This document shows positions 25,770-56,217 of a DNA stretch of 64,000 nt, in pieces. The stretch lies in contig CALGOA010000021.1 in NCBI GenBank assembly GCA_937958015.1, forward strand, positions 1,669 to 65,668, given 5' to 3'. The position numbers and the translations under genes are program-made. A model generated the notes under the pieces. The model was not told the DNA's origin and searched no databases. It saw only the letters and a program-made list of their open reading frames with translations. The DNA is from an uncultured Acidimicrobiales bacterium (GTDB lineage Bacteria > Actinomycetota > Acidimicrobiia > Acidimicrobiales > SZUA-35). Numbering within the stretch: position 1 is the stretch's first letter; each line of letters starts with the position of its first letter.

Positions 25770-27398
25770 CTAGCCGCGGATGCCGGTGCGGTTCATGAAC
25801 TCCAGCGAGTCGCTGAACCCGATCAGCACGGTGCCCCTCGGTACACCGGCCTCCAGGAGCCCGACCCAGTAGTTCCGGCCGCCTTCGTCGGGCGTGCGTC
25901 CGAGGACGTTTCGGTAGACCAGCTCGATGAACCGATCGTGGGAGAGGCGCCCGTAACGGGCCCGAAATTCGGCACTGATCGTGAAGTAGGCCGCGATATC
26001 GATGAGGTGATACTCCGAGTCGACCCAGTAGGCGAGGCCGCCATCGTCGGGAGCCCGTTCAAAGGCTGCGATGTAGAGACGGACCATCGTGGCGGTTCGG
26101 CCCTGGGCTCCCATTAGGTCGCGCGGGATCGGGACCGTGAGCGGATCCGGCGACGAGGTGGTAGGAGCTGCCGTCGGCGCGGGGGCTGAGGTTGTCGTTG
26201 TGGTCTGCTGCGTGGTCGTCGGTTGGGTTGGCGCCGGCTGGGTTGTGACCGGGAGAGTGGTCGGTCGCGGGGTCGTTGTCGGACGGGTCGTTGTCGTGAC
26301 CGGGCGCGTGGTGGTCGGTGCCTCGGTTGTTGTTGTAGTCGGACGCGTCGTCGTGGTGGGCCGGGTCGTGGACGGGACGGTGGTGGTAGGTCGAGTTGTT
26401 GGAGGTGGTGGAGCGACGGTGGTCGGGATAGTGGTGGGCTGGGACGTGGTGGTCGGCTGGGTTGTCGTGGTGGGCTGGGTTGTGGTGGTGGTCGGGGTCG
26501 ATCCACCTCCCTTGGTAAGGGTCCTGGTATCTCGAACCACGCCGTTCACGTCGATGAACTCGGAGATGAAATGGGTGGGGCTGACCCTCAGGCGAACCGA
26601 TCCGTGAGCGCCGTTGAAGCGCACCTTGGATCCGGCGATCGCCGACCCGTAGCCGGAAATACTGGCGCCCCCGAGGCCACTGCAGATGTAGAGAACCCCG
26701 TCGCGTTCGACTCGTTCGTAGTGGTGCCAGTGGCCGGCGTAGCTGGCATCGATGCCCCAGTCCTTGAACGGCCATCGGATCCGGGCCGCTCCACCGCTGG
26801 GTGAGACGTAGGCCGGGTAGTGATGGGCCACGATCTTCCATGCGGCATCGCTTGCGTCAGCGGTTCGCTGCAGCCACTGAGCCTGGACACTGCCGATGAG
26901 GTTGCCGTCGGGTTCGCGGAAGTAGTCGTTCAACACGAACACGTGCAGATCGCCGATACGGACGTCGTAGTACCGGCCGTTGCCCGGGGGTCGAAAGATG
27001 TCGTGCCACGCACCGACGGTGCCGCCGTTCCCGTCACTCCAAAGGAGCGGCCGACCCGGATCGCCCCAGTCGTGATTGCCGAGACTCGGGTAGAAGATGC
27101 CGCGGTCGATGTAGGACCGGTAGAAGCGAGCCGCCTTGCGCTCGAGCACTTCGTACGGGTCCGCGTCGTCACCGCTGTAGACGTTGTCACCGAGAGTGAC
27201 GATCGCTGTCGGGTTCCATGAATCGACCAGACTGGCCACCGCCCGCTGACCGGAACTGTCGCTTCCGTAGTCGCCGAACAACGCAACTGAGACTTCGTTC
27301 CCCATCGCGCCTGATATTGACTGGCCTACGAGTGGTGTTGCGAGCGCAGCTGCGCTGACAACACCGACGCCGCCGATGAATTCTCGCCGTGTTCGCAC
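25770..27398 (-). CDS. Tat-exported purple-acid-phosphatase-type metallophosphoesterase with Pro/Thr linker and DUF4214
   Basis: TRREFI Tat motif; GDYG, GDNVY, GNHD, VAHH, GHWH; C-terminal RLYIAAFERAPDDGGLAYW..VYRNVLGRTPDEGGRNYW. Confidence 0.85.
   Translation of the reverse strand: MRTRREFIGGVGVVSAAALATPLVGQSISGAMGNEVSVALFGDYGSDSSGQRAVASLVDSWNPTAIVTLGDNVYSGDDADPYEVLERKAARFYRSYIDRGIFYPSLGNHDWGDPGRPLLWSDGNGGTVGAWHDIFRPPGNGRYYDVRIGDLHVFVLNDYFREPDGNLIGSVQAQWLQRTADASDAAWKIVAHHYPAYVSPSGGAARIRWPFKDWGIDASYAGHWHHYERVERDGVLYICSGLGGASISGYGSAIAGSKVRFNGAHGSVRLRVSPTHFISEFIDVNGVVRDTRTLTKGGGSTPTTTTTQPTTTTQPTTTSQPTTIPTTVAPPPPTTRPTTTVPSTTRPTTTTRPTTTTTEAPTTTRPVTTTTRPTTTPRPTTLPVTTQPAPTQPTTTQQTTTTTSAPAPTAAPTTSSPDPLTVPIPRDLMGAQGRTATMVRLYIAAFERAPDDGGLAYWVDSEYHLIDIAAYFTISAEFRARYGRLSHDRFIELVYRNVLGRTPDEGGRNYWVGLLEAGVPRGTVLIGFSDSLEFMNRTGIRG
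26150..26500 (-). repeat. Pro/Thr-rich low-complexity linker ([Q/R]PTTT units), approximate bounds
   Basis: STPTTTTTQPTTTTQPTTTSQPTT...TTRPTTTTRPTTTTT within the phosphatase. Confidence 0.85.
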
Positions 27399-27827: not shown

Positions 27828-29171
27828 TTAGGAACGAATTCCGGTTCGGTTCCTGAACTCGACCGACTCGCTGAAGCCCAGCATCACGTCACTGCGGTCG
27901 ATGTTCTTGTCAAGCAATCCGCGCCAATAGGAGGCGCCGTCGGCGTCCGCTGTTCGACCCAGCACGTTGCGGTAGACCCGGTCAACAAACTGAGAGTTTG
28001 TGAGCGAGCCATACCGAAGCTGGAACTCTGGGCTCGCGATGAAGTAGGCGGCGATATCGGCGGTGGCTGCATCGAGGCCTACCCAATAGCTGTGGCCAGC
28101 ATCGTCGGGCACTCGCTCGAACGTGGCAAGGTACAGCCGAGCGATGACCGCAGCGCGGCCCGTAGCGTTTCGGTAACGAGCCGGAACAATCGGTAGGTTC
28201 GATTCCGCGGGAGGCCGGGGAGGTTCGGGCTCAGGGTCGGGATTGGGTATCTGGGGTTGGCCCAGATACTCAAGGACGGCTGCGTCGCGAATGACGCCGT
28301 CGATCGAGATGAACTCGACGTAGGCCCCGTTCGGAGCGACGGTCAGTCGGCTCGCACCGTTGCTGGCCGAGTACAACGCCGAAACCCCGTCAGCGATCTG
28401 GCCGCTATAACCAAACACTGCGCCGCCCAGTCCGTTGACGACATAGTGAACTCCGTCAAGGGCTCGGCGCTCGTAATGGTGCCAGTGACCGGAAAAACTT
28501 GCGTCGATCCCCCACTGTGCGAAGGGCCAACGAATGCTGGCCTTGCCCGGTCGGCCCAGCACATACGGGGCGAAGTGGTGCACCACGAACTTGAACGTTG
28601 CGTCCGAAGCCGAAGCCGTTTCTCTCAGCCACTGAGCCTGCCGGGAGTTCTCCCGGTGCCCGTCTGGCTCGAGGTAGTAGTCGTCGATAATGAACGCATG
28701 CATCGACCCGATCCGTACGTCGTAGTACCTTCCGTTGCCCGGCAGGGAGAAGACGTCGTGCCAGGCGCCTCGGGTTCCGCCTGCTGCGGTGACCTCGAGG
28801 AGAGGCGTTCCGGGATCTCCCCAATCGTGGTTGCCGAGCGACGGGTAGAAGGTGCCGCGCTCGATGAAGGGTCGATAATAATTGACGACCTTCCTTTCCA
28901 GCAGCTCGTACGGGTCCCGACCGTCGGCGCTGTACACGTTGTCACCCATAGTGAAGACGGCATCGGGGTTCCAACTTGCGACCATGTCGGCGACCCGACG
29001 TTGGCCGACGGTTTCAGCTCCGTAATCCCCGATGAGGGCAACGGTTCGGGCGTCGGGGTGGTTCCGAATCTGCTGGGCGTTAGCTCCCGCTGGCGCTGGC
29101 AAGAGGAAAGAACCCAAACCGGCCGCCCCGAGGGCAGCGGAGCCCTTTATGAAGCCTCTGCGCGTCGCCAC
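27828..29171 (-). CDS. Tat-exported purple-acid-phosphatase-type metallophosphoesterase with DUF4214 (paralogue)
   Basis: TRRGFIK Tat motif; GDYG, GDNVY, GNHD, VVHH, GHWH; C-terminal DUF4214 pair. Confidence 0.85.
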   Translation of the reverse strand: MATRRGFIKGSAALGAAGLGSFLLPAPAGANAQQIRNHPDARTVALIGDYGAETVGQRRVADMVASWNPDAVFTMGDNVYSADGRDPYELLERKVVNYYRPFIERGTFYPSLGNHDWGDPGTPLLEVTAAGGTRGAWHDVFSLPGNGRYYDVRIGSMHAFIIDDYYLEPDGHRENSRQAQWLRETASASDATFKFVVHHFAPYVLGRPGKASIRWPFAQWGIDASFSGHWHHYERRALDGVHYVVNGLGGAVFGYSGQIADGVSALYSASNGASRLTVAPNGAYVEFISIDGVIRDAAVLEYLGQPQIPNPDPEPEPPRPPAESNLPIVPARYRNATGRAAVIARLYLATFERVPDDAGHSYWVGLDAATADIAAYFIASPEFQLRYGSLTNSQFVDRVYRNVLGRTADADGASYWRGLLDKNIDRSDVMLGFSESVEFRNRTGIRS

Positions 29172-30405: not shown

Positions 30406-32343
30406 TCAGGAGATCGGCTGGCCTACTGCGAAGCTGAATCTGAAGCCCTCGGTACCGGTTGGAACCTCTTCGTAGGTTTGCTCGAGACGCCGCAGATCGA
30501 CGCTGAACGCCTCACGTAGCGGAACCCCAAGCGATTCCAGGATTCCATTGTTATCAGCGATCACGACGACGGGTCTCCGCAAGTCTTCTACGATCTGACC
30601 CAACGTCGCAGCTGAGACGTCGGGATCGAGCCCAATGACATTCCTTCCCTCGTTTTCGATGAGCAGCGGCACTACGAACGCATCGTGGCTGGGACCTCTC
30701 ATCCACATATATACGGTGTCGTCACCGTTGGACCCGATGATCTGTCGAGGTACATCCAACCCGCCGCTCCACTCTCGATGGTCGTGCAGAGGGACGGTCC
30801 AACGCAGTTGAGGGCCGACGATGGCGACGACCAACACAACGGTGAGCGCCGGCCGGTATCGCCGACTGACCGCTACCAACACCATGGCCGCCCCGAGTCC
30901 CACCAGTATTCCGAGCGTAGGCCAAATCACCGGAACGAAACGCCGCATCGCCCACATTAGGCGTGCGCTGATGCGCTGATCCCATAGATACACGGGCGTC
31001 AGTGATAGACCGGGCGCGACCAGGGCAACGATTCGCCACGACGAATCTCGGGCCAGCTGGACAAGGCCGGCGACAGCGAGAAAGACCGCCACTGGACCCA
31101 AGAACCAGGAGATTCGCTCGATTGCGAAAGGGTTGAACGTGGAACTATCCAACGGAACGCTGGTTCCGGGCGCAGCCGACTTGGATCGAACCAGAAATGC
31201 TACGAGCAGAGCACCGAACACAACCATCGATGCCTGACGAATCGCTCGTACAACGTTATTGTCGAGACTCACGGGACCGGTGAAGAGTTCGAGTGTGAGC
31301 CCTGCGGCCACTGGACCGATCATGAGACCGAACACGACTCGCGGACCGAAGTCCAAATGGCCAGCTGCGTAGTCCGCTGTGGTTGCGTACGTCTGCGTCG
31401 CCCAGATGCCGATCCCAGGCGCAACGCCAACCACGGCCGCAATCACATGGCGTCGGTACCCGGCGAGAGCCATGGCCCCAAGAACGAACGATACCAACGA
31501 CACCAGTAGGAACGAGTCAGCTCGACTGTTGGCACCGGCACCCAAGAGGAAGCCCCCGATGAGTGCGAATCCGACTCCGGTTCTGTCCATCGAGTCAATT
31601 GAGAGCACCCCTGCCAGCATTGCGGCTAATAGCAATGTCGCGACGGGAACTTCGGACCCGTTCCAATCGGCGAAGAACACCCAGACGTAATTGAACGCGA
31701 ATGCGGCTGACCCTACGACTGATGAAAGTACACCGACGACCCGACGCAATATCAGGACCATCGAGAGCACACCGATCAGAGCGACCATAGGGCTGACAAG
31801 AGAGACGCCCAGGGTCCGCCCGATCGCATATGCGGGAGCACTCAGGGCGGGATAGAGATGGTAGAAGGCGAAGTCCAACTCGCCGGGAGTCGTAGAGGAG
31901 GGATCGAGTGCGGGATAGTCAGCGGAGACGTCGGGGTATTCCTGCAACCCCAACCCGACGATTGGATCGTCCAAGGCCAGGCGGCCGGATTCGGCGATGT
32001 GTTGTGAGTGACGGATGTATACCCCCGGGTCTATCCCGGCGATCGAAACACGGTTGCCGGGAAGTACGAGTCCTAGGAAAAGACCTGCCAAGAGCAACAG
32101 GTACAGTACCAACCACCGTTCGGTGGGCGCTGGCCGGTGGGTGCGGGCGACCGCTACCCCGATCGCAATAGGTGCCAGGAAAGCGCCGACAACGGGAGCT
32201 AGAGACCACGCTGCGAGTTGCGCCAGGACCAACGAGGTGACCGCACCGACGGCGACGGCGGCGGCCATGGCCACGACGGCACACTCGGCCCCGGTGGCAC
32301 GGCCGGACAACTGACGTTCATACCATTCGATTTCGTCGCTCAT
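30406..32343 (-). CDS. Polytopic membrane protein, probable GT-C fold glycosyltransferase
   Basis: About 13 TM helices, acidic first loop IDPGVY, WNGSEVP, WAMRRFVP; directly downstream of a GT2 gene. Confidence 0.6.
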   Translation of the reverse strand: MSDEIEWYERQLSGRATGAECAVVAMAAAVAVGAVTSLVLAQLAAWSLAPVVGAFLAPIAIGVAVARTHRPAPTERWLVLYLLLLAGLFLGLVLPGNRVSIAGIDPGVYIRHSQHIAESGRLALDDPIVGLGLQEYPDVSADYPALDPSSTTPGELDFAFYHLYPALSAPAYAIGRTLGVSLVSPMVALIGVLSMVLILRRVVGVLSSVVGSAAFAFNYVWVFFADWNGSEVPVATLLLAAMLAGVLSIDSMDRTGVGFALIGGFLLGAGANSRADSFLLVSLVSFVLGAMALAGYRRHVIAAVVGVAPGIGIWATQTYATTADYAAGHLDFGPRVVFGLMIGPVAAGLTLELFTGPVSLDNNVVRAIRQASMVVFGALLVAFLVRSKSAAPGTSVPLDSSTFNPFAIERISWFLGPVAVFLAVAGLVQLARDSSWRIVALVAPGLSLTPVYLWDQRISARLMWAMRRFVPVIWPTLGILVGLGAAMVLVAVSRRYRPALTVVLVVAIVGPQLRWTVPLHDHREWSGGLDVPRQIIGSNGDDTVYMWMRGPSHDAFVVPLLIENEGRNVIGLDPDVSAATLGQIVEDLRRPVVVIADNNGILESLGVPLREAFSVDLRRLEQTYEEVPTGTEGFRFSFAVGQPIS

Positions 32344-33354
32344 TCAGTCCAGAACCACGCTCTTACGCCGATCGCCATCGAGCTCAACGTCATAGTGGCT
32401 GGGTCCGACTTCAACCGCCAGTTCGAGACGGCGAACCCGTTCGAACGTTCGCTGCGACACTACTCGTTGGCCAGCGATCAGGTCGGCGACTACCGCGAGA
32501 GCGAACAGCTGCACCGCCGAGATTATTAGAACCGCTCCGACGACAATCGATTGCAGGTGTCCGGATGTGTCACCATTGAGCAACCAGTCGCTCAGGAAGG
32601 GCAGGAACGCAACCAAGGCACCGACGAGGCTTGCGCCAGCCAACACTCCAAAGAACTTCAATGGTTCGTAAGCTGCGAAGACTCGACCGATCGTGATGGC
32701 GTTTCGTCGCACGTAGCCGAACATCGATCCGAAAAGCCGCGACTCCCGGACCTTGGGGTTCGTGCGTATCGGAACAGATGTGATCGCCGAGTTCAGCCGG
32801 CCAGCCTGGATCAACGACTCGATCGTGTAGGTGTACTGGTTCACGACGGTCAGCCCGAGCGCAGCTTCCCGCGAGTACGCCCGGAACCCGCTGGTAGCGT
32901 CGGGTATGTCGGTGCCCGACGCCTTGCGAACGGTCCAGCTTCCAATGAGCTGCAGCCGAATCTTGAGGCGGCTGAACTCGTCATGGTTCCGGACATCCCG
33001 CGCCCCCACGACAATGTCGGCACGGCCTTCGAGGATGGGGGCGACGAGCTTTGGGATATCAGCCGCCACGTATTGGTTGTCCGCATCGGTATTGACGACC
33101 ACGTCAGCTCCGAGTTTGAGGCACGCATCAAGACCAGCCTGGAACGCGTTCGCCAGGCCACGATTCTGCGGAAGTTTGACGACGTGGTGCATGCCGAGCT
33201 CGCGCCCGACCGCAACGGTGCCGTCGCTCGACCCATCGTCGATCATCAGCCACTCGACAATATCGAAACCCGCTACCTCGGTTGGCAACTCAGCCAGCGT
33301 CGCTGGAAGTTGTTCAGCCTCGTTGTAACAAGGGACCTGGATAATCAACTTCAT
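32344..33354 (-). CDS. GT2 polyprenyl-phosphate glycosyltransferase (DPM synthase/GtrB-like)
   Basis: VPCYNEA, IDDGSSD, NTDADNQY, SGFRAYSRE and two C-terminal TM helices; start trimmed to 33354. Confidence 0.9.
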   Translation of the reverse strand: MKLIIQVPCYNEAEQLPATLAELPTEVAGFDIVEWLMIDDGSSDGTVAVGRELGMHHVVKLPQNRGLANAFQAGLDACLKLGADVVVNTDADNQYVAADIPKLVAPILEGRADIVVGARDVRNHDEFSRLKIRLQLIGSWTVRKASGTDIPDATSGFRAYSREAALGLTVVNQYTYTIESLIQAGRLNSAITSVPIRTNPKVRESRLFGSMFGYVRRNAITIGRVFAAYEPLKFFGVLAGASLVGALVAFLPFLSDWLLNGDTSGHLQSIVVGAVLIISAVQLFALAVVADLIAGQRVVSQRTFERVRRLELAVEVGPSHYDVELDGDRRKSVVLD

Positions 33355-33480
33355 CGACCAAGACCTTAGTGGCGCATTCAAGCCGGGCTGCGGATCGCAG
33401 GTGGCCCAACCCGCCGTCCTTGCCACGATTCACTGGAGGGTAGGCGGTAGTGTCGGCGACAGGATTTACCAAGGAGATCA

Positions 33481-34536
33481 ATGCCAGACCCACGAGAAAT
33501 CCCCAGGCGGGCCAAGGCCGTCGTGAAATCGACAGTTGGAGTACACCCGGACCTTTTTGACCTGATTCATGCCATCAAGAATGAGATCGTCGGCCGGTTG
33601 GAGCTCCTGCAGGGGGATCTCGATTCCACCGCCACCTCCCTTTCTGAAGAGGTGGCGATTGCGGGAATGGCAGCACACAGCGCCGAAGCGCTGGCGCGAG
33701 CAAATCAGGCGGAAATGCGGGCAGCCCGTGACGAGCTGGCGTTCGCTCGGGCCTCCATCGAGGACCTCCTCGGCAGGAACACCCTTTCGAGGATGCGCAA
33801 GGAGCGGGCCCAGATCGACCAGTTCGATGAACAGCTGGCCTTCTTCCTCAACTACGCACACTCCCACGAGGGCCCCCTCGCCGCCAGGAATCTCTGGCTC
33901 AACAATCCGGTCGTCGTCGAATGGCAGGAGCGAAACGCCAGAGTCGGGGCTGTCAACGAGCGAATAGTGGAGGTGCCCTTCGTGATGCAATCGCTCGGTG
34001 CCCTCGCCCCCGGAGCAAACATTCTCGATATCGGTGGCGGCGAGAGCACGCTCGGATTCTCACTCGCTTCGCTCGGCTACCTCACGACGGTTGTTGAACC
34101 CCAGGGGTATCCATTCACCCATCCGAATCTCCGAGTCTCGCTGCAAGCTTTGGAGAGCGGCGACGTCGACGAGCGTTTTGACGCCGTGATTCTGCTGTCC
34201 ACGATTGAACACTTCGGCATCGGGCACTACGCGGGTGGCCCCGAGCCAACGATGGACGCAGACCTCGAGGCCCTTCGCCTCATCCGAACTCGACTCATCA
34301 AGGACGAAGGAATTCTGATTCTCACCACCCCCTACGGTCCAGCGGAGGTGAACGATGTCGAGCGGATATACGACAACGAGCGGCTACACCGCCTTCTCGC
34401 CGGTTGGGATATCGACGTTGTCCGGGTGGCTCAACGAACGAATTCGACAAGCTGGACTCTGATCTCGGACCATCTGGTGGACGAACCAGCTTCTGGAAGC
34501 GTCGTGATGGTGACCGCGCGGCCAAGTTCAACGTGA
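33481..34536 (+). CDS. SAM-dependent methyltransferase (DUF268-like) with N-terminal coiled coil
   Basis: RBS aaggag; NERIVEVPF, ILDIGGGES, LSTIEHFGIGHY, LILTTPYG, RIYD. Confidence 0.75.
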   Translation: MPDPREIPRRAKAVVKSTVGVHPDLFDLIHAIKNEIVGRLELLQGDLDSTATSLSEEVAIAGMAAHSAEALARANQAEMRAARDELAFARASIEDLLGRNTLSRMRKERAQIDQFDEQLAFFLNYAHSHEGPLAARNLWLNNPVVVEWQERNARVGAVNERIVEVPFVMQSLGALAPGANILDIGGGESTLGFSLASLGYLTTVVEPQGYPFTHPNLRVSLQALESGDVDERFDAVILLSTIEHFGIGHYAGGPEPTMDADLEALRLIRTRLIKDEGILILTTPYGPAEVNDVERIYDNERLHRLLAGWDIDVVRVAQRTNSTSWTLISDHLVDEPASGSVVMVTARPSST

Positions 34537-38891: not shown

Positions 38892-38906
38892 CGGTAATGC
38901 GCCTGG

Positions 38907-43140: not shown

Positions 43141-44000
43141 AAGGCATCATCCTGGCCGGAGGCACCGGCACGAGGCTCCACCCTCTGACGCTCGCCGCGT
43201 CAAAACAGTTGCTGCCGGTGTACGACAAACCGATGATCTACTACCCGATCAGCACCCTGATGCTCGCCGGGATCCGGGAGCAGTTGATCATCACGACCCC
43301 CGAGGACGCGCCGGCGTTCCAACGCCTCCTCGGTGACGGCTCGCGATTTGGACTCGAGTTTTCTTACGCCACCCAACCCCGTCCCGAGGGTCTGGCGCAG
43401 TCATTCATCATCGGTGAATCCTTCGTTGCGGGCGGGGCCTGCGCGCTCGCCCTGGGAGACAACTTCTTCTACGGCGGCGGAATGACAGCGCAACTGCTTC
43501 ACGCAGTGACCTCCTCGACCGGCGCCCGGGTCTTTGCCCAACGGGTTCGCGATCCCCATCGTTATGGCATCGTCACGCTCGACGACGCCGGCGCACCGGT
43601 CGAAATCGAGGAGAAGCCATCGAATCCCCGGTCGGATTGGGCGGTCGCGGGCCTGTACTTCTACGACGAACAGATCACCGAGATCGCCAAGCAGGTGCGT
43701 CCCTCACAGCGAGGGGAACTGGAGATCACATCGATACATCAGACCTACCTCGACCAGGGTCAACTTGAGGTGACCCAATTGAGTCGTGGCGTCGCCTGGC
43801 TTGACACCGGCACGTTTGATTCTCTGGTCGAGGCGGGTGAGTTCGTTCGCGTGATCGAGAAGCGCCAGGGCAAGAAGATCGGATGCCTTGAAGAGATCGC
43901 CTGGGAGCAGGGTTGGCTGAATGACGAACAGCTTGAGCAGGCTGCTCAGACGATGCTGCGAAGTGGCTACGGCGAATACTTGTTGCAGCTTCTCGGCTAA
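43137..44000 (+). CDS. rfbA: Glucose-1-phosphate thymidylyltransferase
   Basis: [51 protein letters not shown] overlap with rfbB. Confidence 0.96.
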
Positions 44001-46174: not shown

Positions 46175-46917
46175 GATACCTGCCGCCCCGATATCTGTTT
46201 CGACGGGCGGAGATCCTTCGTTCGATCGTGCCGGGCGACCGCTTTCTGGAGGTCGGGGCCGGCGACCTCACACTCACCACCGAACTACTCGACCATTTCG
46301 GCTCCGGGATCGCGCTTGAACCCAGTGAGAATCCGGAGCGTTTCCTGCTGACTCTGGATCAGGATGTCCAAGCTCGACTGGAAGTCCAGTCGAGCGAACT
46401 CGATGCGTTTGAGCCGCCCGGAACATTCGATTGTGTGGTCAGTTGTGAGGTGATGGAGCACGTCGAGGACGACGCAGGATTTGCTCGCAGCCTCGTGCAA
46501 AACCTCCGACCGGGGGGACAACTGATCGTGTCGGTGCCCGCCCATATGCGGTTCTGGACCGTGCACGATCAACTGGTGGGACACCTTCGCCGGTATGACC
46601 GGGCCCAACTGGTCACATTGTTCTCCAACGCCGGGTGCACCGACATCGACGTTCGGTCCTATGGGTATCCGTGGATCAACCTGCTTCGTCTGCCCCGGCT
46701 CATCCTCGCCAAGCTCCAACAGGACGAACGGTCAGAGATGACCACTGCGGAACAGACCGCGTCCAGCAATCATCGACAGATTCCTGCAGGCCTGGCGTCG
46801 TCGCCCGTGCGGTTCCTCACCCGACCGGCGCTCGTTGCGCCCTTGGCCTTCATCTCCCGTGCCTTTAACAGACTCGACCGATCCGACGGTTTTGTAGTTG
46901 TCGCGAAACGCCGGTGA
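46171..46917 (+). CDS. Class I SAM-dependent methyltransferase
   Basis: LEVGAGDL, EVMEHVEDD, LRPGG, SVPAH, GHLRRY. Confidence 0.87.
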   Translation: MRYLPPRYLFRRAEILRSIVPGDRFLEVGAGDLTLTTELLDHFGSGIALEPSENPERFLLTLDQDVQARLEVQSSELDAFEPPGTFDCVVSCEVMEHVEDDAGFARSLVQNLRPGGQLIVSVPAHMRFWTVHDQLVGHLRRYDRAQLVTLFSNAGCTDIDVRSYGYPWINLLRLPRLILAKLQQDERSEMTTAEQTASSNHRQIPAGLASSPVRFLTRPALVAPLAFISRAFNRLDRSDGFVVVAKRR

Positions 46918-46918
46918 C

Positions 46919-48172
46919 CTACGCAGATGCCTCGGCGGGACGGACCGGGTCGATCGCACCAGGTTCCAGTTGTTGGTGAGAGATCGACGTCTTTAGTCGT
47001 ACCCGTCCACTGCTGGTTCCTCCCGAAGTTACCGAGAAACTCGTGGGCGCCTCAGCGCGGTCGTATTCGAATGTCTCCTGCACATCCTGCAGGGCGGCTG
47101 TGACCTCGAAGCTGCCTTGAAGCAGGGGTAGATCGTCCACCACGATCTCGACCTCGCTCACGCCAGGTTCGATATCGAGCAGGTCATGGCCGAGGATGTC
47201 GGCGCTCGAGAAGTTCGACACCATGATCCCGTCGTGGCTGTACAACCAGATGGCCAGCCGTATGGCCGGAATCGATTCGGTTGAGGTGAACCGAACCCGA
47301 ATCCTGATCGTCTGCCCAGGATGGTGCGACTCACCTCCGTCGGCCGGCGGATCGACGGAAACACCTACGAGCGAGACCGTATCCCGCTGGTTCTTGTTGA
47401 GTTCGGTCGGGGTCCCGTCTCCATGGCGAATTCCGGTTCGGGCTTCAAGCGCATCGCGGTACACCACCACACCATCGTGCGGTTCGCCGCAGTAGATCAT
47501 CTTGCCGCTATCGAGTACGACCGCCTTGTCACAGAACAGGCGCACCATGTCGGGACTGTGGGTCACGAGCACGATGGTTCGACCATCGCGCTGGAACCCT
47601 CTGACCCGTTCGAGGCATTTTCGCTGAAAGGCCTCGTCTCCGACCGCCAGAACCTCATCGATGAGGAGCACGTCGGGTTTGAGGTTCACGGCCACCGCGA
47701 AACCGAGCCGGGCGAACATGCCGGAGCTGTAGTTCTTGACCTGGGTGTCGATGAAGTTCGGAATCTCGGAGAAATCGATGATGTCGTCGATCATCTCGGT
47801 GATCTGTTCCTTGGAGAACCCCAGGATCGAGCCGTTCAAGTAGACGTTCTCCCGACCGGTCAGGTCGGGGTGAAAACCAGCACCCAGTTCGAGCAGCGCA
47901 CTCATCGACCCGCGAACCCGAACCGCTCCCTCGGAGGGGCGGATCGTGCCCGAGATGCATTTGAGCATCGTTGACTTGCCGCTGCCGTTGTGACCGAGAA
48001 TCCCGACCGTCTGGCCTGCGGCCACATCGAACGCGACATCGTCGAGAGCGTTAAATTCGACGCTGGAACCACGACCGACCGAAAGGAACCGTTCCATGAA
48101 CGATCCGGGTCCCCCGGTCTGGCGTTTGAACCGTTTGGTGACGTGATCGACCTCGATGGCGGTGTAACTCAT
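46919..48172 (-). CDS. wzt: Polysaccharide ABC transporter ATPase with C-terminal carbohydrate-binding (Wzt_C) domain
   Basis: GHNGSGKST, LGAGFHPDLTGRENV, YSSGMFARL, DEVLAVGDEAFQRKC and an Ig-like tail; start trimmed to ATG 48172. Confidence 0.92.
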   Translation of the reverse strand: MSYTAIEVDHVTKRFKRQTGGPGSFMERFLSVGRGSSVEFNALDDVAFDVAAGQTVGILGHNGSGKSTMLKCISGTIRPSEGAVRVRGSMSALLELGAGFHPDLTGRENVYLNGSILGFSKEQITEMIDDIIDFSEIPNFIDTQVKNYSSGMFARLGFAVAVNLKPDVLLIDEVLAVGDEAFQRKCLERVRGFQRDGRTIVLVTHSPDMVRLFCDKAVVLDSGKMIYCGEPHDGVVVYRDALEARTGIRHGDGTPTELNKNQRDTVSLVGVSVDPPADGGESHHPGQTIRIRVRFTSTESIPAIRLAIWLYSHDGIMVSNFSSADILGHDLLDIEPGVSEVEIVVDDLPLLQGSFEVTAALQDVQETFEYDRAEAPTSFSVTSGGTSSGRVRLKTSISHQQLEPGAIDPVRPAEASA

Positions 48173-49089
48173 CAGATGGCCTCGCCGAAATCGCCTTCGA
48201 GCCGGGCGAAGGTACGAATGCCAAGAAGCAACACCACGAAAGAGAACACGAACGAAATGGCCAGAAGTCCGACGAAGAAGCCCATTCCCTGGTCGAGCAT
48301 CAGGGGAAAGTGCAGCGCCTGGTCGGCTTCGCTCAGGTTCTCGGGGTTGTACAGCACCCGTTGGAAGGCCACCATCGGGCCGATCATTGGATTGAGCCCT
48401 GCGACCAATGAGCTGAGCCCCATGCTCTCGAGTTCGCGGCCGACGAAATCGAAGGTGTAGACGATCGGCGAAAACCAGAACCAGGCGAGCAGCCCCAGTT
48501 CGAGGAAATGCATCGTGTCGCGGTAGTAGACGTTGTAGGCGCCCAATAGAAGGCCCAGTCCGGTGGCGAGCATCATTGTGATGAGTAGTGCCGGGACCAG
48601 TAACCACAACATCGAGAACTTTGGAACGTGCCCGAACGCGGCCAGACCAGCGAGCAGGACGATCATCTGGAAACAGAAACTGATAAACGAGGCGCCCACG
48701 GCAGCCAGCGGCAGGATCTCGCGGGGAAACCACACCTTCTGGACCAGCGGGCCGTTGCTGACGATCGATGAGGCTGCACTGGACAGACCCACTGAGAACA
48801 GATTCCAGACAAGAAGACCCGAAAGTAGAAGAAGGCCATAACGGGGCGCAGCACCCTTGAGGATCACGCCGAACACCACGCTGAACACGGCGAGATACAG
48901 CAACGGGTTCAGGAGCGTCCAAAGGAACCCGAGCACGCTGTCTTTGTATCGAACCTTCAGTTCGCGCCGGACGAGGTTGCCGAGCAACTCGCGGAACTCC
49001 CAAACGTCTTTGATTCGGGTGGGGATGGATCGAGGAACGCTGCCGTGCTCGACCAGCGGAGGAATCTCGCTCCCCGTAACAGCTGCCAT
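48172..49089 (-). CDS. wzm: Polysaccharide ABC transporter permease
   Basis: RELKVRYKDSVLGFLWTLLNPL, KVWFPRE, YYRD, SPIVY, LNPM; start trimmed to 49089. Confidence 0.92.
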   Translation of the reverse strand: MAAVTGSEIPPLVEHGSVPRSIPTRIKDVWEFRELLGNLVRRELKVRYKDSVLGFLWTLLNPLLYLAVFSVVFGVILKGAAPRYGLLLLSGLLVWNLFSVGLSSAASSIVSNGPLVQKVWFPREILPLAAVGASFISFCFQMIVLLAGLAAFGHVPKFSMLWLLVPALLITMMLATGLGLLLGAYNVYYRDTMHFLELGLLAWFWFSPIVYTFDFVGRELESMGLSSLVAGLNPMIGPMVAFQRVLYNPENLSEADQALHFPLMLDQGMGFFVGLLAISFVFSFVVLLLGIRTFARLEGDFGEAI

Positions 49090-49218
49090 TCCCACCAGCC
49101 TAGTGCCGAGCCGTACGGTGTTTGGCGAGGGTCGACTTCGACGTTGGGCCGTCCCTGCAGCTGCGATGTGCGCAACCATCAGCGGTTCCCCGACGTCGGG
49201 AAACTATCGTTCGCCCGC

Positions 49219-50937
49219 ATGCTGGATCAGCGTTCTCGGCGGGACCAGCCGATCCACACACCGTCTCCACAGGAACGATCCGGAGATTGGTCGGCCCGAT
49301 CCGCCTTCGCAGTCCTGACCGCCGGCAGCGCCGTCCTGATCGCACTTCGATTGTGGATCATTTCGTCGGTGGCCTCGCCATTCCTGTTCGCCGATGAAAC
49401 CGTAGGTTTCGGCGTCGCTCGGTTTCTCGCGGGGTTCGGAAACGAGATCGCCGGCCCGAGCGGACGCCCCCTGCTCGGACTACTCCTCAGTCCGCTCGCC
49501 GTCGCCACCGACGACCCTGCGGTCCTGCATCGGGGCGCGCTCGTTCTGAACGTTGCGCTCGGCACCTCGCTGGTGCCTTCTCTGTATCTAGCGGGCCGAC
49601 GAATGCTGAAGTATCGACGCTCAGACAGCGCAACCATTGCACTGGCAGGGTCGGGCACGGCGGCCGCGATGAGCTACACCGTCATCGCCTTTCCCGAACT
49701 CCTCCTCACCGCGATCACCACGATTGCGGTTCCGGTCGTGTGGTCACGATTCGAACGACCAGACCCGCGAACCCTCATCCCGCTCGCCGCACTCTTTGCC
49801 GCATTGTTCTCCGGGGCCCATCCGCGGGGAGATGCGCTGTCGCTCGCCCTTGTCCTCACGCTCGTTCTGGCCGTCGCTCGCCGCCAGCTCGGTCCGGCCG
49901 AGGGGTTGGGCGCCGCAGCTGCGGCGATTGGCGCCAGCGCGGTCGTCGTCCTTACCTCGGCTGCGCTGAATAGTCGCCTGTACGTGGGGTCGACCAATGC
50001 CAGCTACTCGATCACCGAGATCGTGACCGACTCGATCGCCGAACCCTCACTTCTCGTACGGGCCGGCATCGGCAGCGTCTGGTACAGCGTGATCGCAACG
50101 TTCGGCCTCGCCGTGTTGGGCATCATCGCAATCTGCCGGGACATTCCCCGAAGCGACTCCCGGGGCACCGCAGCACAGTTCGTCGCCCTCCTCGTCCTCG
50201 GGTCGTTCGCCGCTTCCAGCCTTTTCGTTTCGCTGATCATGAGCGGTCAGGGCCGGGTCGACTCTTTCGCGTATGGCCGGTACGTGGAACACCTCTTTCC
50301 AGTCTTGCTGTTGTACGCGCCGGCCGTTTGGTCGCTGCGCTGGGCTCGGAACGCTGCGATGATCGGCGGCGGAGCAATCCTCGCGGCCGGAGCCGTGATC
50401 TCACGGCTGGCCTACGAGTCGGATTTCTGGACCGGCCCCACTCTGAAGACCAACATCCCGATGATCTGGTACCTGTGGGAAGGCGCCGACCCTATTCAAC
50501 CGTGGGTGGCGTCCGTCGTCGGGATCGGATTGGTCGGCATCATGATGGCCGCCCTGGCCCGTGAGCGATTCCGTGCGGTGGCTATCGCAGCTTTGACCCT
50601 CGCCGGAGTGGGCACCGCGGTCGCACTCGTTCGCCAGAACATCGCGCCGTACTCCAGCTACGTCGCCGAGTGGCGGCCCGCCGCCGACGCGCTTATCGCC
50701 GAAGAGGCCACCGACGTTGCGGTGGTGACCGAGGCGTACCCGGGATTGTGGCGTCATCTGATCCAGTTCTGGGCCGACGACGTGGACTTCGATCACTATG
50801 TCACGATCGAAGACATCGGCCCCGACGCACGATGGTTACTGGCCCTGGAGGGTCAGCCGCTCCCGGTCGGGCGTTCCGGACAGATCGTCCACAACTTTCC
50901 CGACCAGGACACGGTGATTTGGCGGCTGGACCCCTAG
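49219..50937 (+). CDS. Polytopic membrane protein, probable GT-C fold glycosyltransferase
   Basis: FADE acidic motif after TM1, FPE, HPRG, YGRYVE, many TM helices; start trimmed to 49219. Confidence 0.6.
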   Translation: MLDQRSRRDQPIHTPSPQERSGDWSARSAFAVLTAGSAVLIALRLWIISSVASPFLFADETVGFGVARFLAGFGNEIAGPSGRPLLGLLLSPLAVATDDPAVLHRGALVLNVALGTSLVPSLYLAGRRMLKYRRSDSATIALAGSGTAAAMSYTVIAFPELLLTAITTIAVPVVWSRFERPDPRTLIPLAALFAALFSGAHPRGDALSLALVLTLVLAVARRQLGPAEGLGAAAAAIGASAVVVLTSAALNSRLYVGSTNASYSITEIVTDSIAEPSLLVRAGIGSVWYSVIATFGLAVLGIIAICRDIPRSDSRGTAAQFVALLVLGSFAASSLFVSLIMSGQGRVDSFAYGRYVEHLFPVLLLYAPAVWSLRWARNAAMIGGGAILAAGAVISRLAYESDFWTGPTLKTNIPMIWYLWEGADPIQPWVASVVGIGLVGIMMAALARERFRAVAIAALTLAGVGTAVALVRQNIAPYSSYVAEWRPAADALIAEEATDVAVVTEAYPGLWRHLIQFWADDVDFDHYVTIEDIGPDARWLLALEGQPLPVGRSGQIVHNFPDQDTVIWRLDP

Positions 50938-51515: not shown

Positions 51516-53399
51516 CTACTGGGCCTGCCCGTAGAACCGGTCCGAAGTGGCAAGTTCAACCGCCAGTCGCACATCGTCGATCGTGAGCAGACGGTTCGAC
51601 CAGTACACGATCGAGGACTCGGCTGGCGCAAATCCCATCACCCGGCTGTACATCCGGGTGGTGCGGTCTCGACGGGACTCGATCGACACGAAGAAGTACT
51701 TTCCAACCTGGATTCGGCTGAGCTCGTTTCGGTCCATCAAACCAACCCAGTAGGCCAATCCTTCGGCATCGGCTTCACGATGCAGAACGTCGCGATAGAG
51801 ACGTTGTACGTACGCCCTGTCGTTACCTCCGGCACCGTTGTAGTACTCATCGGATGCGAAGAAGTACGAACCGATGTCATCGAATCGGGTCCCACCCTTG
51901 AGAACGTCACGCCAGTAGGCGGAACCGCTCGCATCGGGTTGACGACCGAATGCCGTAGCATACAAGTCCGCCAACATGACGCCCGCAAAAGCATCGCTCT
52001 GGGCCATGCGGGTGGCGACGCCGCTGCGGTCCTGCGAGGAGTAGATCTCGTCAGTCCAGCGTTCGATATCGGCGGCCGACGGATCGGTGCCGAGGAAGGT
52101 CTCGGCGAGCGATTCGACGTACTTGGCGATCTGGTCGGTCTCACCGCGTTGGATGGCGCCGATAGTGAACCAGTCCGACTTCAGACCCAGCGTGGTACGG
52201 GCGACCCAACCACTCTGCACGACCGTGCCGTTCTCGAACCGGAACTCGATCTCGGTGATCCGTCCGCCGTCGGGGCCGAGGCCGTTTCGTTTGGTTGCGA
52301 CCAGCTCGAGAAGTTTGCCGCGCTTGAACTTGGCTTCGAGAGCGGTGACGTTCACGACCTTGGTCCACTGCCGGTTCGGATTGTCGACGATGGCGTCGCC
52401 CTCGTCCTGGACCGACGGGAAGGTGCCGCCAGCGGTGTACCCACCGGTGCTGGAGGAGAACTCGGTTCGAGCAACCCGACCGGCGCTGTTCACCCGGACC
52501 AGTCCGGTCGTCGCCGCAACGGCGGCGTCGGTACGGGGATCGGTCGTCGGGTTGATGGCTCCGCCCGATTTCTGGTGGAAGCGCCCCCAGAAAACCTGGC
52601 AGCGGGTGGTTTCGCAGGTGTCCGCCCACGGCTGGTGACGGGTGTCGCCGGCCATGGCGTAACTCCGGGCCGCGACGGCCTGGGCTTCCAACGCTGCCGC
52701 TGGCCACTTGGCCGGGGACTCGTTCGGGACGACGCCGCGGAGGTATTCCTCGATCGTTGTGTAGTTGGCGGTTCGGTGGGTTCCGGCTGCGTAGTCGGCC
52801 ACGATCTCACCCGAATACCAGGTTCGCGCGGAACCGGTGCGACAGACGTGGAGCAACGAGTCCGGGGTGTCGACCGCCGCCGACGACTCGGCCCGCAGAT
52901 GAATACGGGAATGGCCGGTGATGCCGCCCAGGAGGGTCCACGGGCCCGCGCAGCTCGAGGCATAACTGACCAGATACTGACTTCCGTCCCAGCCGAGGCG
53001 CACCGCACCGTTGGAGATCGATCCGAGATCCTCACCACCGGGTCCATACATGTGAATCAGTCCCGATCCGAGACCGACCGCAGTGGAGCGACCCTTGTTG
53101 TAGCTCAGGTCGACCCGAACCAGGTTCGGATCGACGATGTTGTCGGCGGGTACCGAACCGGCGCTGGTTCCCACATAGAAGTGATCGAGGATGCGGGCGC
53201 TCGACCATCCTTCGTTCTGGGCGTACCCGTAGGCGCCGTACTGGCCCATGCCGCGGCCATGACCCCAACCGCGGCCGGTGATGGTCACGGTTGCCGTGTC
53301 GGAGACGGCAGCGGAAGCGGATCCGGCCCACAGGAAGGGCAGGAGGATGACGGCGACGAGTAGTGCCGCAAGGTGTGAGGCAGGGCGCTTGGGGTGCAT
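51516..53399 (-). CDS. SpoIID/LytB-domain cell-wall hydrolase with C-terminal DUF4214 repeats
   Basis: Signal peptide; GWGHGRGMGQYGA, EEYLRGVVPNE, AQAVAARSYA, CETTRCQV; three LY..FGR.PD..G..YW-type repeats. Confidence 0.88.
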   Translation of the reverse strand: MHPKRPASHLAALLVAVILLPFLWAGSASAAVSDTATVTITGRGWGHGRGMGQYGAYGYAQNEGWSSARILDHFYVGTSAGSVPADNIVDPNLVRVDLSYNKGRSTAVGLGSGLIHMYGPGGEDLGSISNGAVRLGWDGSQYLVSYASSCAGPWTLLGGITGHSRIHLRAESSAAVDTPDSLLHVCRTGSARTWYSGEIVADYAAGTHRTANYTTIEEYLRGVVPNESPAKWPAAALEAQAVAARSYAMAGDTRHQPWADTCETTRCQVFWGRFHQKSGGAINPTTDPRTDAAVAATTGLVRVNSAGRVARTEFSSSTGGYTAGGTFPSVQDEGDAIVDNPNRQWTKVVNVTALEAKFKRGKLLELVATKRNGLGPDGGRITEIEFRFENGTVVQSGWVARTTLGLKSDWFTIGAIQRGETDQIAKYVESLAETFLGTDPSAADIERWTDEIYSSQDRSGVATRMAQSDAFAGVMLADLYATAFGRQPDASGSAYWRDVLKGGTRFDDIGSYFFASDEYYNGAGGNDRAYVQRLYRDVLHREADAEGLAYWVGLMDRNELSRIQVGKYFFVSIESRRDRTTRMYSRVMGFAPAESSIVYWSNRLLTIDDVRLAVELATSDRFYGQAQ

Positions 53400-53529: not shown

Positions 53530-56217
53530 TTAGCGAGTGACGAGTCGGTAGTAGGCAGGACTGGCGATCATGGTGGCGGCGAGCGTCAGGTCATCCGAAC
53601 GAGCCAGCTCCGACGCCCACGCTTCGCGCTGGCTGGCATCGGGGGTGGTTCCGGCGACCCGTCGATACAACGAGTCGACCCGGTCCCGGCGAGACTCGAT
53701 CGAGTCGTAGAACCCGGCGGTTACCTGGGCCGGCGTGGCGGCCCCGGTCCGTATCAGACCGGCCCAGTAGGCCCGCCCCTCGGCGTCGGGGGCTCGGTGG
53801 AGCAGGGAGTCATACAACACGTCGACGTACCGCTCTGGTGATCCGGATCGTTTGAACAGTTCCTCTGAGCCATAGAAGTAGACCCCCATGTCTCGAAGCG
53901 TCACCCGTTTCGAATTCAACAGACCGGTCCAGTACGCCTTTCCTTCGGCGTCAGGATTCCGGTCGAGCGCTCGCCGGTACATGTCGTCCACGATTGAGGA
54001 TGTGAACTCGGGGCGACGGACCATCGCATCGGCCAGCACCTTGGTGCCGCCGTGGTCGGTCTTCCAGTTCCAGTGGTCGATCCACTTCGCTGAGGTCGTT
54101 TCCGGGCTTAGTCGGTTCAGCACCGCTGAGATGTACTCGTAGTCGCCCGACTTCTTGAACGACGAACCGGTGAGGTCGTAGCCCGTGAGGACTGCATCGG
54201 TCGCGATCCCCGCCCCGACGTGGGTCGATGCGTTGACCACTGGCCGCTCATCGCCGAAGGTCCACCAGCGACCTTCGCTGTCGAGGACCCAACCGCCGTT
54301 GGCGTTCGGTCCGGCGACCACCGATACCGGCGCGGTCGGCACCACATCGCCGTAGCTGGTGGCGGCACCGAAGCCGATCACCTCGCCGATGTCGGTGAGC
54401 ACATACCCGGAATGGCCCGAAGCCCAGACCACGATGTCGATCACACGACCACGGGGCGTCGATCGAAGTGTGGCGGCAGGCGTCTGGTGGATCGGGTTCA
54501 ACGTGCCCGTTGCCGACACCGTGTAACCGATCTTGTCATCGTTGACATCACCGGCCACCGCCGGCCCTCGGGACGAGCGGTCTTGCACCTGTCCACCAAA
54601 TCCGTGCAGGAACCCATCGGCGGTGACCACGTAGCCGCTCTTGCCGCTGTCTCTCACGATGAGGTCAACCGGGGACGAACCACCGGGTCGGCCGGCAACC
54701 GCCGGCGCGTCTCCGTAGGCCCGCAGCGTGCCATCGACCGCCAGTACATACCCGGCGGTTGCAGTGCCGCCGACGGCGATCGCAGTGGACGCACCCGGTG
54801 CGTTGGCGGGTGTTGCCTGTCCCAAAGCCGGACGTAGCCCGCCCCGGTTATCCACGGCCATCAGTTTGGGCCCGAAGTCGTTCCCATCGATCCCGGTGCT
54901 GCCGTAGGGCACCGGCGAGGCGAGTGCCCGGGGGGTGAACTCCGCCTTCATCTCCGAGATGATGGGCATCGTCCAGTTGCCGGGACAGGAGGTCTCGCCG
55001 AGGTCGCGGTGGCCGAGGATCGTCGGAACCGAAACATACTGTGCAGCCGGGTGTTTCAGAACGCCGGTCGTGGCGGTGTTCTTCAGCAGCGCCCGACCAT
55101 TGGGGTCCACCCCGTGAAGCCGAAGTTTCCAGGCGCCGAGGTTCTTGATCGCCTGCAACGATGCCGACGACGGCCGGACCGGAGCCGGGCTCTTGATGTT
55201 GCTCTGGTGCTGACCGAGCAGTGCAACGGCGAAGGTGTTCGAGTTGAACCCGCGTGCGTGGCCGCCGATGATCGGTTTGTCGATACCGCCCGAACGTCCT
55301 TCCCAGAGGGTGCCGAACCGGTCGACCAGGAAGTTGTAGGCCACGTCACACCAACCTCGGCTCACCGTGTGGAAACGGTGGATGCCACGGAGCAGTTTGG
55401 GGACCTCGTCCTGGGAGTAGTTGTTCGTCGTCACCGTGTGGTGCACGACCATCGCCCGGATGCTGTCGGAATGACGGGGACCGTCTTCACAACCCGACGT
55501 GCCCTGTTGAAACCCGGGGCTGCCCCAATCGGCGTTGGAACGGATCGTTGGTTGGTTGGCCCAACCGGCGGAACCGTTGGCGAGGGTCGGCTTCAGAGGG
55601 ACATCGATCTCGGGCATGTCGAGAGCCTCGGAATCGATCGCGGCGATCTCTTCGTCGCTGTCGAGCAACACGATCTCGACACCGGTCGTTCCTTCTCCGA
55701 CCCAGATGGGACCGATCGATCCGACACCGGCGGCGGATTCGGGTCCGGACCCTTCGCCACCGGGGGTGCCGTCGGGTGCCTCGTTTTCGTGAGCGTGCAA
55801 AACCGCCCAGTCGCTCCAACCCTCATCGTTTCGTGACCGAAGAGCCAGTTGGCTGTGGGCGACGCCGTCGCCGGCGGGATCGACCGGCTGGATGATCACC
55901 ATCTCGGAATCGCCATCGAGGGCGATGTCGACAACCGGAACCGCGGTCGACCGGGCCAGCACCCTGTGCTGATGACCATCCTCAACCCCAAGGTCGAGCT
56001 CGGACTCCGCAGCTGGGGTCGCCGCATTCAGAAGGGCAAACAGGTCATCGTCGAGCGGTTGGGTGTCGACGAATGGAGTAACCGCAGCCGAGACGCGCAC
56101 ATCGTCGTCGTCGGTGATGTTCAGTGCACTCGCTGGGACCGCGAGAAACGCCGCTACCGCCAGAAGAGTTGCGGACAGCAGAAGCTGGTTCGGCCGCCGA
56201 AAAATGTGAGTTCGCAT
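53530..56217 (-). CDS. PGRP-like N-acetylmuramoyl-L-alanine amidase with beta-repeat region and DUF4214 repeats
   Basis: Signal peptide; VVHHT, GWCDVAYNFLVD, GGHARGFN, GHRD..TSCPG; DUF4214 tail; start trimmed to 56217. Confidence 0.88.
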   Translation of the reverse strand: MRTHIFRRPNQLLLSATLLAVAAFLAVPASALNITDDDDVRVSAAVTPFVDTQPLDDDLFALLNAATPAAESELDLGVEDGHQHRVLARSTAVPVVDIALDGDSEMVIIQPVDPAGDGVAHSQLALRSRNDEGWSDWAVLHAHENEAPDGTPGGEGSGPESAAGVGSIGPIWVGEGTTGVEIVLLDSDEEIAAIDSEALDMPEIDVPLKPTLANGSAGWANQPTIRSNADWGSPGFQQGTSGCEDGPRHSDSIRAMVVHHTVTTNNYSQDEVPKLLRGIHRFHTVSRGWCDVAYNFLVDRFGTLWEGRSGGIDKPIIGGHARGFNSNTFAVALLGQHQSNIKSPAPVRPSSASLQAIKNLGAWKLRLHGVDPNGRALLKNTATTGVLKHPAAQYVSVPTILGHRDLGETSCPGNWTMPIISEMKAEFTPRALASPVPYGSTGIDGNDFGPKLMAVDNRGGLRPALGQATPANAPGASTAIAVGGTATAGYVLAVDGTLRAYGDAPAVAGRPGGSSPVDLIVRDSGKSGYVVTADGFLHGFGGQVQDRSSRGPAVAGDVNDDKIGYTVSATGTLNPIHQTPAATLRSTPRGRVIDIVVWASGHSGYVLTDIGEVIGFGAATSYGDVVPTAPVSVVAGPNANGGWVLDSEGRWWTFGDERPVVNASTHVGAGIATDAVLTGYDLTGSSFKKSGDYEYISAVLNRLSPETTSAKWIDHWNWKTDHGGTKVLADAMVRRPEFTSSIVDDMYRRALDRNPDAEGKAYWTGLLNSKRVTLRDMGVYFYGSEELFKRSGSPERYVDVLYDSLLHRAPDAEGRAYWAGLIRTGAATPAQVTAGFYDSIESRRDRVDSLYRRVAGTTPDASQREAWASELARSDDLTLAATMIASPAYYRLVTR

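Follow-up and report, generated by a model that had tools for sequence, protein, structure and literature searches.

DUF4214 (Pfam PF13946) tags surface proteins in many phyla, including those of segmented filamentous bacteria clusters and the phage-shielding protein Psh of Pseudomonas putida; the authors of the Psh study report being unable to establish how the protein engages the O-antigen (10.64898/2026.09.02.748959). In segmented filamentous bacteria that lack S-layer homology (SLH) domains it has been called a likely anchor (PMC12780176), and with both cases in print the anchor concept is not new. In Peptostreptococcaceae, swaps between SLH and CWB2 anchors travel with polymer enzymes (10.1101/2025.04.02.646754). 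The literature examined contains no measured DUF4214 ligand, and a full-text search for DUF4214 or PF13946, with subscription journals outside its coverage, returned no title on Acidimicrobiia. Here we examine DUF4214-tailed enzymes encoded together with a Wzm/Wzt glycan exporter in an uncultured Acidimicrobiales bacterium (assembly GCA_937958015.1), on a 64,000-nucleotide stretch of contig CALGOA010000021.1 that is referred to below as the window.

An initial annotation of the window had proposed that DUF4214 is a non-covalent anchor reading the pyruvylated glycan built by this locus, much as SLH domains read the product of CsaB. The comparison presented here finds a real locus and a sound anchor hypothesis with the wrong epitope. 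Within the order there is a built-in comparison: SLH genomes retain a pyruvyl transferase, DUF4214 genomes mostly do not, and the same hydrolase occurs with either tail. One hypothesis on the ligand is thereby removed, candidate glycosyltransferases can be named, and Salinilacustrithrix flava (locus L159) and Aquihabitans sp. (locus L180) emerge as cultured hosts.

DUF4214 as a genome-wide tag

Four exported enzymes of the window, two metallophosphoesterases, a SpoIID/LytB-type hydrolase and an Amidase_2 protein (Table 1), end in DUF4214 at the positions first reported. A Pfam search gives their tails bit scores of 75-92 against a gathering cut-off of 23.2, with E-values of 1e-25 (25770-27398) and 2e-26 (27828-29171) for the phosphatases, 9e-23 for the SpoIID protein (51516-53399) and 4e-21 for the amidase (53530-56217), all on the minus strand. 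The first ATG given by the gene finder for the amidase lies at 56340, and its signal peptide comes after the ATG at 56217. The repeat motif described for all four tails is present in two copies per protein if its first position may be L, M or V, and a twin-arginine motif in each phosphatase agrees with their designation as Tat substrates. All five metallophosphoesterase motifs searched for are found in both phosphatases, and the SpoIID and Amidase_2 motifs searched for are found in the respective hydrolases; we take these motifs to be catalytic. The Thr/Pro-rich linker of the 25770-27398 protein, about 120 residues long, is a possible site of O-glycosylation.

The tag extends far beyond these four proteins. 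In the genome of the window, which is 88.7% complete, an iterated profile search recovers 45 DUF4214 open reading frames (ORFs) on 37 contigs, 41 of them beyond the window contig. A Pfam scan of 40 of these 41, leaving out one 86-residue fragment, matches PF13946 in every case. The cargoes include M23 and M15 peptidases, a transglycosylase-like domain, 5'-nucleotidase, CAP, RCC1 and fn3. DUF4214 is C-terminal in 29 of the 45 proteins, N-terminal in 15 and internal in one; 38 look exported by a crude hydropathy and Tat test, and none has an LPXTG motif or a C-terminal transmembrane helix. Searches for SLH (PF00395) give no match in this genome, and those for CWB2 (PF04122) none in this genome or in 24 family relatives. 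DUF4214 is present in all 24 of these relatives, with 10-105 matches each, versus 3 of 16 genomes from other families. Attachment to unrelated, apparently exported cargoes at either terminus, without a sorting signal, together with the presence of SLH on the same enzyme in relatives (see below), supports the view that DUF4214 behaves like a non-covalent envelope anchor. CWB2 was considered as a swapped anchor and set aside, being found in only 3 of 41 genomes.

Synteny of wall hydrolases and the exporter

The tailed enzymes were first described as bracketing the glycan locus. Their positions are as described, but the arrangement is weak within the genome, with 41 of the 45 ORFs on other contigs and the four genes forming two tandem pairs. 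Counted as single genes, four lie near wzt against 0.5 expected (P ~0.002); with tandem pairs merged, 2 of 42 clusters do so against 0.47 expected (P ~0.08), which makes local clustering weak as evidence.

A recurrent gene order in the family is sir2, thiF, amidase, spoIID, wzm/wzt, variable cassette, meaB/mutase. Of the family relatives, 18 have matches to both SpoIID and wzt; in 15 of them the two are no more than 20 kb apart, and in the other three they are on separate contigs. A DUF4214 tail is present on 14 of the 15 linked SpoIIDs. A DUF4214-tailed SpoIID or amidase also adjoins wzt in genomes G141, G184, G134, G101 and G082. The linkage proposed between DUF4214 proteins and wzm/wzt/pyruvyl-transferase loci holds across the family for the SpoIID and amidase genes with the exporter, but not for the pyruvyl transferase. 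The phosphatases are a genus-level feature, found in G001, G003, G004 and G006 (split) but not in G005 nor in any of the other-genus loci compared. The presence of Wzt as such is an uninformative correlate, since 36 of 40 relatives have it. The SpoIID of one family member, G018 (L063:14652-15920), is tail-less, and DUF4214 matches in that genome number only 12.

Exchange of tails on the SpoIID-type hydrolase

In relatives, the SpoIID-type hydrolase carries other modules at the position of DUF4214. In six genomes of other families (G025, G031, G034, G035, G038, G039) it ends in six 42-residue repeats that structure prediction models as a six-bladed beta-propeller, for which Foldseek returns generic WD40-type chains only and Pfam has no family. 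One further other-family SpoIID ends in PG_binding_1 (G030), and one has no recognisable tail. In G182 and at locus L201, the SpoIID of the wzm/wzt locus ends in SLH. G182 also has an SLH-tailed amidase and subtilase, three pyruvyl-transferase (PF04230) genes and a block of Asn-synthase, LPG-synthase and glycosyltransferase family 4 (GT4) genes like that of the window. A tree of the catalytic domain places 40 of 43 DUF4214-tailed SpoIIDs in one supported clade with one tail-less member, and a smaller tree agrees; the L201 protein falls among propeller-tailed and other homologues, and that of G182 forms a long branch. At the level of sequence, DUF4214 in this Acidimicrobiales clade stands where other lineages have SLH or the six-bladed propeller. 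In the amidase of the window, the stretch from the catalytic domain to DUF4214 seems to retain a degenerate propeller repeat: orthologues of the protein match the propeller repeat profile weakly (E 7e-9 to 3e-5), and the window copy is below threshold.

The distribution of these tails was followed in an order-wide panel of 161 genomes, in which a family is called expanded at a threshold of 8 matches (thresholds of 6 and 10 agree), match counts are lower bounds and related genomes are not independent of each other. The propeller is expanded in 51 of the 161 genomes, but in none of 13 DUF4214-expanded and none of 11 SLH-expanded genomes (naive P 0.006 and 0.013). Mutual exclusivity of SLH and DUF4214 is not supported, with one overlap against about one expected.

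Several loci have unusual combinations of tails. In G082 (L109-L111), a single wzt locus encodes three DUF4214 proteins together with several that carry SLH, and also two pyruvyl transferases and an amidase with a propeller tail; this may be a system caught in transition. At L201:14744-16771 an SLH-tailed SpoIID stands with an FG-GAP-tailed amidase in a locus that is otherwise DUF4214-like and has no pyruvyl transferase in the 21 kb examined. The SpoIID tails of G078 (L114) and G036 (L088) are built from another kind of repeat, rich in neither of the above motifs but of a glycine/aromatic type, to which Pfam assigns no family.

Pyruvyl transferase and candidate glycosyltransferases

The CsaB-like pyruvate logic of the initial annotation is not borne out. 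PF04230 is found in 2 of the 24 family relatives and in none of 10 members of the genus, though all carry DUF4214. The pyruvyl transferase of the window scores 77.2 bits on the CsaB model TIGR03609 against a cut-off of 213.1 and falls below the cut-offs of the WcaK models too. It is the only PF04230 gene of the genome, and it belongs to a four-gene block that is absent from every same-genus wzt locus compared; in G004 the flanking genes are the same but the block is lacking, and similar genes occur in the SLH-using G182. Contigs of run X1, from which this DNA may derive, span both edges of the block at a flat depth of 12.6-13.5, and short fragments of it are present in two runs of another study. 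The block is probably an accessory decoration of this genome and not the conserved epitope, and the glycan itself may be pyruvylated, judging from this one gene.

PF04230 tracks SLH instead. In the order-wide panel it occurs in 10 of 11 SLH-expanded genomes, 4 of 12 with DUF4214 only and 33 of 138 others, the last including the unpublished G154. All three SLH-expanded members of the 41-genome set (G027, G033, G037) have it about 2-10 kb from wzt. By these matches, the pairing of SLH with a pyruvyl transferase occurs in other families of the same order. In G101, G151 and G141, PF04230 lies more than 100 kb from the best wzt match. Pyruvate was rejected as a general epitope on the family counts, the missed CsaB cut-off, the SLH association and its scarcity around the GT4 gene described next.

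Judged by homologue counts, two GT4 genes that lie outside the span of the initial annotation track DUF4214 better than the pyruvyl transferase does, if imperfectly. Close homologues of the GT4 gene at 19980-21341 are found in 11 of the 161 genomes: 10 of the 17 with at least 4 DUF4214 matches versus 1 of the 144 others. The GT4 domain of the 58684-60687 fusion exceeds 200 bits in loci from 20 genomes. Every one of these genomes is DUF4214-expanded, and no SLH or propeller locus of the G-numbered genomes, covering only 3-40 kb each, reaches that score. Around the 58684-type GT4, the best 80 public loci, a set that was ordered by similarity to the query and overlaps relatives already counted, include a DUF4214 gene in 45, SLH in 1, a propeller in 1 and a pyruvyl transferase in 3; for the 40 of them that are at least 19 kb long, the numbers are 33, 1, 1 and 1 (PF04230 within 10 kb). 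Its closest named relatives among public loci are Acidimicrobiales records. Both GT4 genes may be clade markers. The 19980-21341 gene was rejected as a universal partner, as it was not found in seven, and only weakly in one, of ten DUF4214-expanded genomes checked one by one.

Fold of the tail

The tail of the SpoIID protein is modelled as all helical with a predicted local distance difference test (pLDDT) score of 96.9. Foldseek gives it no match at E 0.001, and its list is dominated by phycobilisome linkers, which belong to a cytoplasmic protein scaffold. These are also the best structural match by VIA-align (Z 10.9, root-mean-square deviation (rmsd) 2.9, 114 residues aligned), and the DUF4214 sequence profile reaches the linker protein ApcE at E 9e-4. 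Hints of kinship to the RsaA surface anchor are weaker: RsaA (6T72) is second in the Foldseek list (E 0.043, TM 0.23) and scores Z 4.2-4.3 by VIA-align with an rmsd of about 8 (8.1 over 164 aligned), which is within background and ranks 37 in a wide search. The RsaA N-terminal domain PF19198 has no match at E 0.001 in the four window tails and matches 1 of 40 paralogues below its cut-off of 27 (22.7 bits, E 9e-5). Sequence searches of the PDB at E 10, whether with L002 or with the two DUF4214 profiles, do not recover RsaA, and the Atlas score for RsaA likeness (0.82) is a lead only. The DUF4214 repeats have invariant Tyr, Arg, Trp and Glu residues.

Proposed mechanism and alternatives

On balance, we lean towards a reading in which DUF4214 holds tagged proteins non-covalently on the cell wall, probably via the glycan that Wzm/Wzt is expected to export and probably without pyruvate. 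Export, wall binding and ligand are here predicted from family function and comparison. Cargoes would leave by Sec or Tat, while GT4 and GT2 enzymes would build a lipid-linked glycan. Wzm/Wzt would flip this glycan, which would next be joined to peptidoglycan by an LCP ligase from another locus. Gripped by the tandem helical DUF4214 repeats, the polymer may then serve to retain wall hydrolases and scavenging enzymes at the wall. A broader proposal is more tentative, and we would sooner doubt it than rely on it: Acidimicrobiales may share a single ancient locus for a wall glycan, composed of wzm/wzt, SpoIID and amidase, on which no fewer than three anchors can replace one another (SLH with pyruvate, the six-bladed propeller and DUF4214). 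DUF4214 would then join SLH and CWB2 as a third class of wall anchor that reads glycans, of the same repeat ancestry as the phycobilisome linker and the RsaA anchor, and its epitope would be made by the conserved GT4 enzymes (58684-type and the 19980/21338 pair).

A number of observations weigh against anchoring through this glycan. The support for anchoring is sequence comparison, and the O-antigen binding of Psh in the literature is a modelling result. DUF4214-tailed SpoIIDs form mostly one clade, which implies that the tail was gained few times and that the number of independent events behind the co-occurrence counts is small. The SpoIID-wzt link is also seen in 3 of 11 other-family genomes with both matches, none of them DUF4214-rich; the link therefore belongs to the enzyme and is not independent evidence on the ligand of the tail. 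No DUF4214 gene lies in the wzt loci examined of G151, G092, G076 and G078, and G082 is expanded in both DUF4214 and SLH, an overlap close to that expected by chance. The glycan cassette varies among DUF4214-rich genomes, and the genome has other glycan loci. Of the candidate GT4 genes, that at 19980-21341 was not found in the DUF4214-expanded G012, G018, G020, G022, G024, G082 and G092 and is weak in G076, and L201 has a 58684-type GT4 yet an SLH tail. Finally, the phycobilisome linker, the closest solved fold, binds protein and not sugar.

Cassette variation and the further glycan loci also favour an unlikely but serious alternative, that DUF4214 anchors to peptidoglycan itself or to another polymer (that of the LCP/GT4 locus on contig C129, a capsule or a lipoglycan), the hydrolases adjoining wzm/wzt only because this is the old cell-wall locus of the order. 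The linkage of hydrolase and wzt with other tails fits this explanation, as does PG_binding_1 on the same enzyme in one relative. The strong enrichment of two GT4 genes of the locus with DUF4214 speaks against it, as does the occurrence of DUF4214 on diderm surface proteins beside O-antigen genes (10.64898/2026.09.02.748959). The fold itself raises another explanation, that cargoes dock on a protein scaffold, either an S-layer or DUF4214 itself, as phycobilisome linker domains do on phycobiliproteins. We consider this improbable despite the structural match and the profile hit to ApcE: on this enzyme family DUF4214 stands where relatives carry SLH, which is known to anchor proteins by binding glycan, and no scaffold candidate turned up, though no search was aimed at one.

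A secretion or covalent-sorting signal in place of a binding module could be imagined from the terminal position of the domain and five sortase-family matches in the genome. It is a very poor fit to the ordinary, signal-peptide-like N-termini of the cargoes, the 15 N-terminal placements and the uniform lack of LPXTG motifs and C-terminal transmembrane helices. Least probable of all is the original proposal that DUF4214 reads the pyruvylated glycan of this locus as SLH reads the CsaB product. The location of the sole PF04230 gene of the genome and the invariant arginines, which could bind an anion, are consistent with it, but as a general rule it is largely refuted by the family and genus counts, the score below the CsaB cut-off, the distances from wzt in three genomes and the single PF04230 gene against 33 with DUF4214 in the 40 long loci.

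Other features of the locus

Profile searches confirm that wzm/wzt, rmlBA, glycosyltransferase and pyruvyl-transferase genes lie between the tailed enzymes (Table 1). An ABC-2 permease, an ATPase and a Wzt_C domain are all present, the last with 29.8 and 33.5 bits in two scans against a cut-off of 30.4; the solved structures nearest to Wzt are TarH/TagH and ABC transporters. The genes rmlC and rmlD are on contig C119, and elsewhere in the genome there are two genes for LCP ligases and one for a WecA-like protein, besides further glycan genes. A monoderm envelope is expected for the class Acidimicrobiia.

Table 1. Features of the window, with strand and supporting matches
Feature	Position	Strand	Evidence
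GT4 pair outside the span of the initial annotation; adjoins wzm/wzt in many relatives; 19980-21341 co-occurs with DUF4214	19980..22651	-	Locus comparison, homologue counts
Tat metallophosphoesterase, Thr/Pro-rich linker, two-repeat DUF4214 tail (~25773-26132)	25770..27398	-	PF00149, PF13946, motifs
Tat metallophosphoesterase paralogue, two-repeat DUF4214 tail (~27831-28205)	27828..29171	-	PF00149, PF13946, weak TAT_signal
Multi-pass membrane protein (~12 transmembrane helices, putatively GT-C-like) and polyprenol-phosphate-type GT2	30406..33426	-	Transmembrane helix count; GT2 with sub-cut-off AglJ-like match
DUF268-type putative methyltransferase and tandem-GT4 glycosyltransferase; in part of the family	33481..36842	+	Profile search, locus comparison
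Accessory four-gene block: polysaccharide pyruvyl transferase (40757-42010), Asn-synthase-like amidotransferase, LPG-synthase-type membrane protein, GT4	36820..42010	-	Pfam
rmlB and rmlA	41923..44000	+	TIGR01181, TIGR01207 above cut-off
GT2, GT4 and methyltransferase of variable cassette	44046..46917	+	Profile search, locus comparison
Wzt, glycan ABC exporter ATPase with Wzt_C; single copy in genome	46919..48169	-	PF00005, PF14524
Wzm, glycan ABC exporter permease	48172..49179	-	PF01061
Multi-pass membrane protein (~10 transmembrane helices, putatively GT-C-like)	49045..50937	+	No Pfam match; homologues 25-43% in relatives
SpoIID/LytB-type wall hydrolase, four-repeat DUF4214 tail (~51519-52157)	51516..53399	-	PF08486, PF13946, TIGR02669 above cut-off
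Amidase_2 protein, probable degenerate propeller repeat region, four-repeat DUF4214 tail (~53533-54171)	53530..56217	-	PF01510, PF13946
GT4-methyltransferase fusion outside the span of the initial annotation; GT4 domain marks DUF4214-rich wzt loci	58684..60687	+	Profile search, locus comparison

The membrane protein at 30406-32343 has no Pfam match and may be GT-C-like, a label suggested by its transmembrane helix count and context. The putative methyltransferase at 33481-34536 matches DUF268 and has no solved relative at E 1; by analogy, it may be a WbdD-like chain terminator. It has a long N-terminal extension and adjoins a tandem GT4 in the same locus as a Wzt_C exporter, and the GT4 at 19980-21341 also occurs in this context. 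This combination of methyltransferase, tandem GT4 and Wzt_C exporter may resemble chain-length control of the capped O-antigen type. The second glycan locus, on contig C129 (L212), contains an LCP ligase, a UDP-sugar dehydrogenase, an epimerase, three GT4 genes and a nucleotidyltransferase.

Other genes of the window include one for a protein with about 7 transmembrane helices and no Pfam match (17803-18720), 41% alike over 81 residues to an LPG-synthase-type protein of G182, and one for a small HNH protein (50934-51428) that is 81-88% conserved beside wzt in same-genus loci. Two M23 peptidase genes lack DUF4214 (1455-2438 and 5715-7352), and a DUF222-HNH protein is encoded at 61592-62953.

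Comparison with known systems

The closest solved fold is the phycobilisome linker domain (PF00427; 3OHW, 2KY4), over about 115 residues, although its identity to the tail is only 8-17%. The N-terminal domain of Caulobacter RsaA (PDB 6T72, PMC6978808) is likewise helical and binds a surface polysaccharide; it differs in that it binds lipopolysaccharide O-antigen and belongs to a protein that forms an S-layer, and its structural alignment to the tail is at background level. Psh of P. putida KT2440, an RTX-DUF4214 protein, is encoded beside surface-glycan genes and has been proposed to bind glycan (10.64898/2026.09.02.748959). It is type I secreted in a diderm and directed to O-antigen, with binding that was modelled.

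The SLH/CsaB system represented by Paenibacillus alvei SpaA (PMC6081394) has the same general design, in which many exported enzymes share a terminal repeat module and polymer genes are linked to the tagged proteins. In the Acidimicrobiales genome, by contrast, SLH was not found, the fold is different, and the pyruvyl transferase is not CsaB by NCBIfam and is not conserved with the tag. Peptostreptococcaceae provide a parallel for exchange: there, anchors are swapped across the whole proteome, on hydrolases and phosphoesterases that are homologous, and polymer enzymes go with the swaps (10.1101/2025.04.02.646754). The alternatives here are instead DUF4214, SLH and an uncatalogued propeller in Actinomycetota, one of the three having a known ligand. 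Segmented filamentous bacteria are similar in being monoderms largely without SLH, in which many secreted proteins of Cluster.1/3 share four conserved terminal regions with a phycobilisome-linker-like fold (PMC3371716). The system described here differs from theirs in its phylum, in its N-terminal as well as C-terminal placement of DUF4214, in its conserved link to wzm/wzt and in the SLH domains that relatives carry on the same enzyme.

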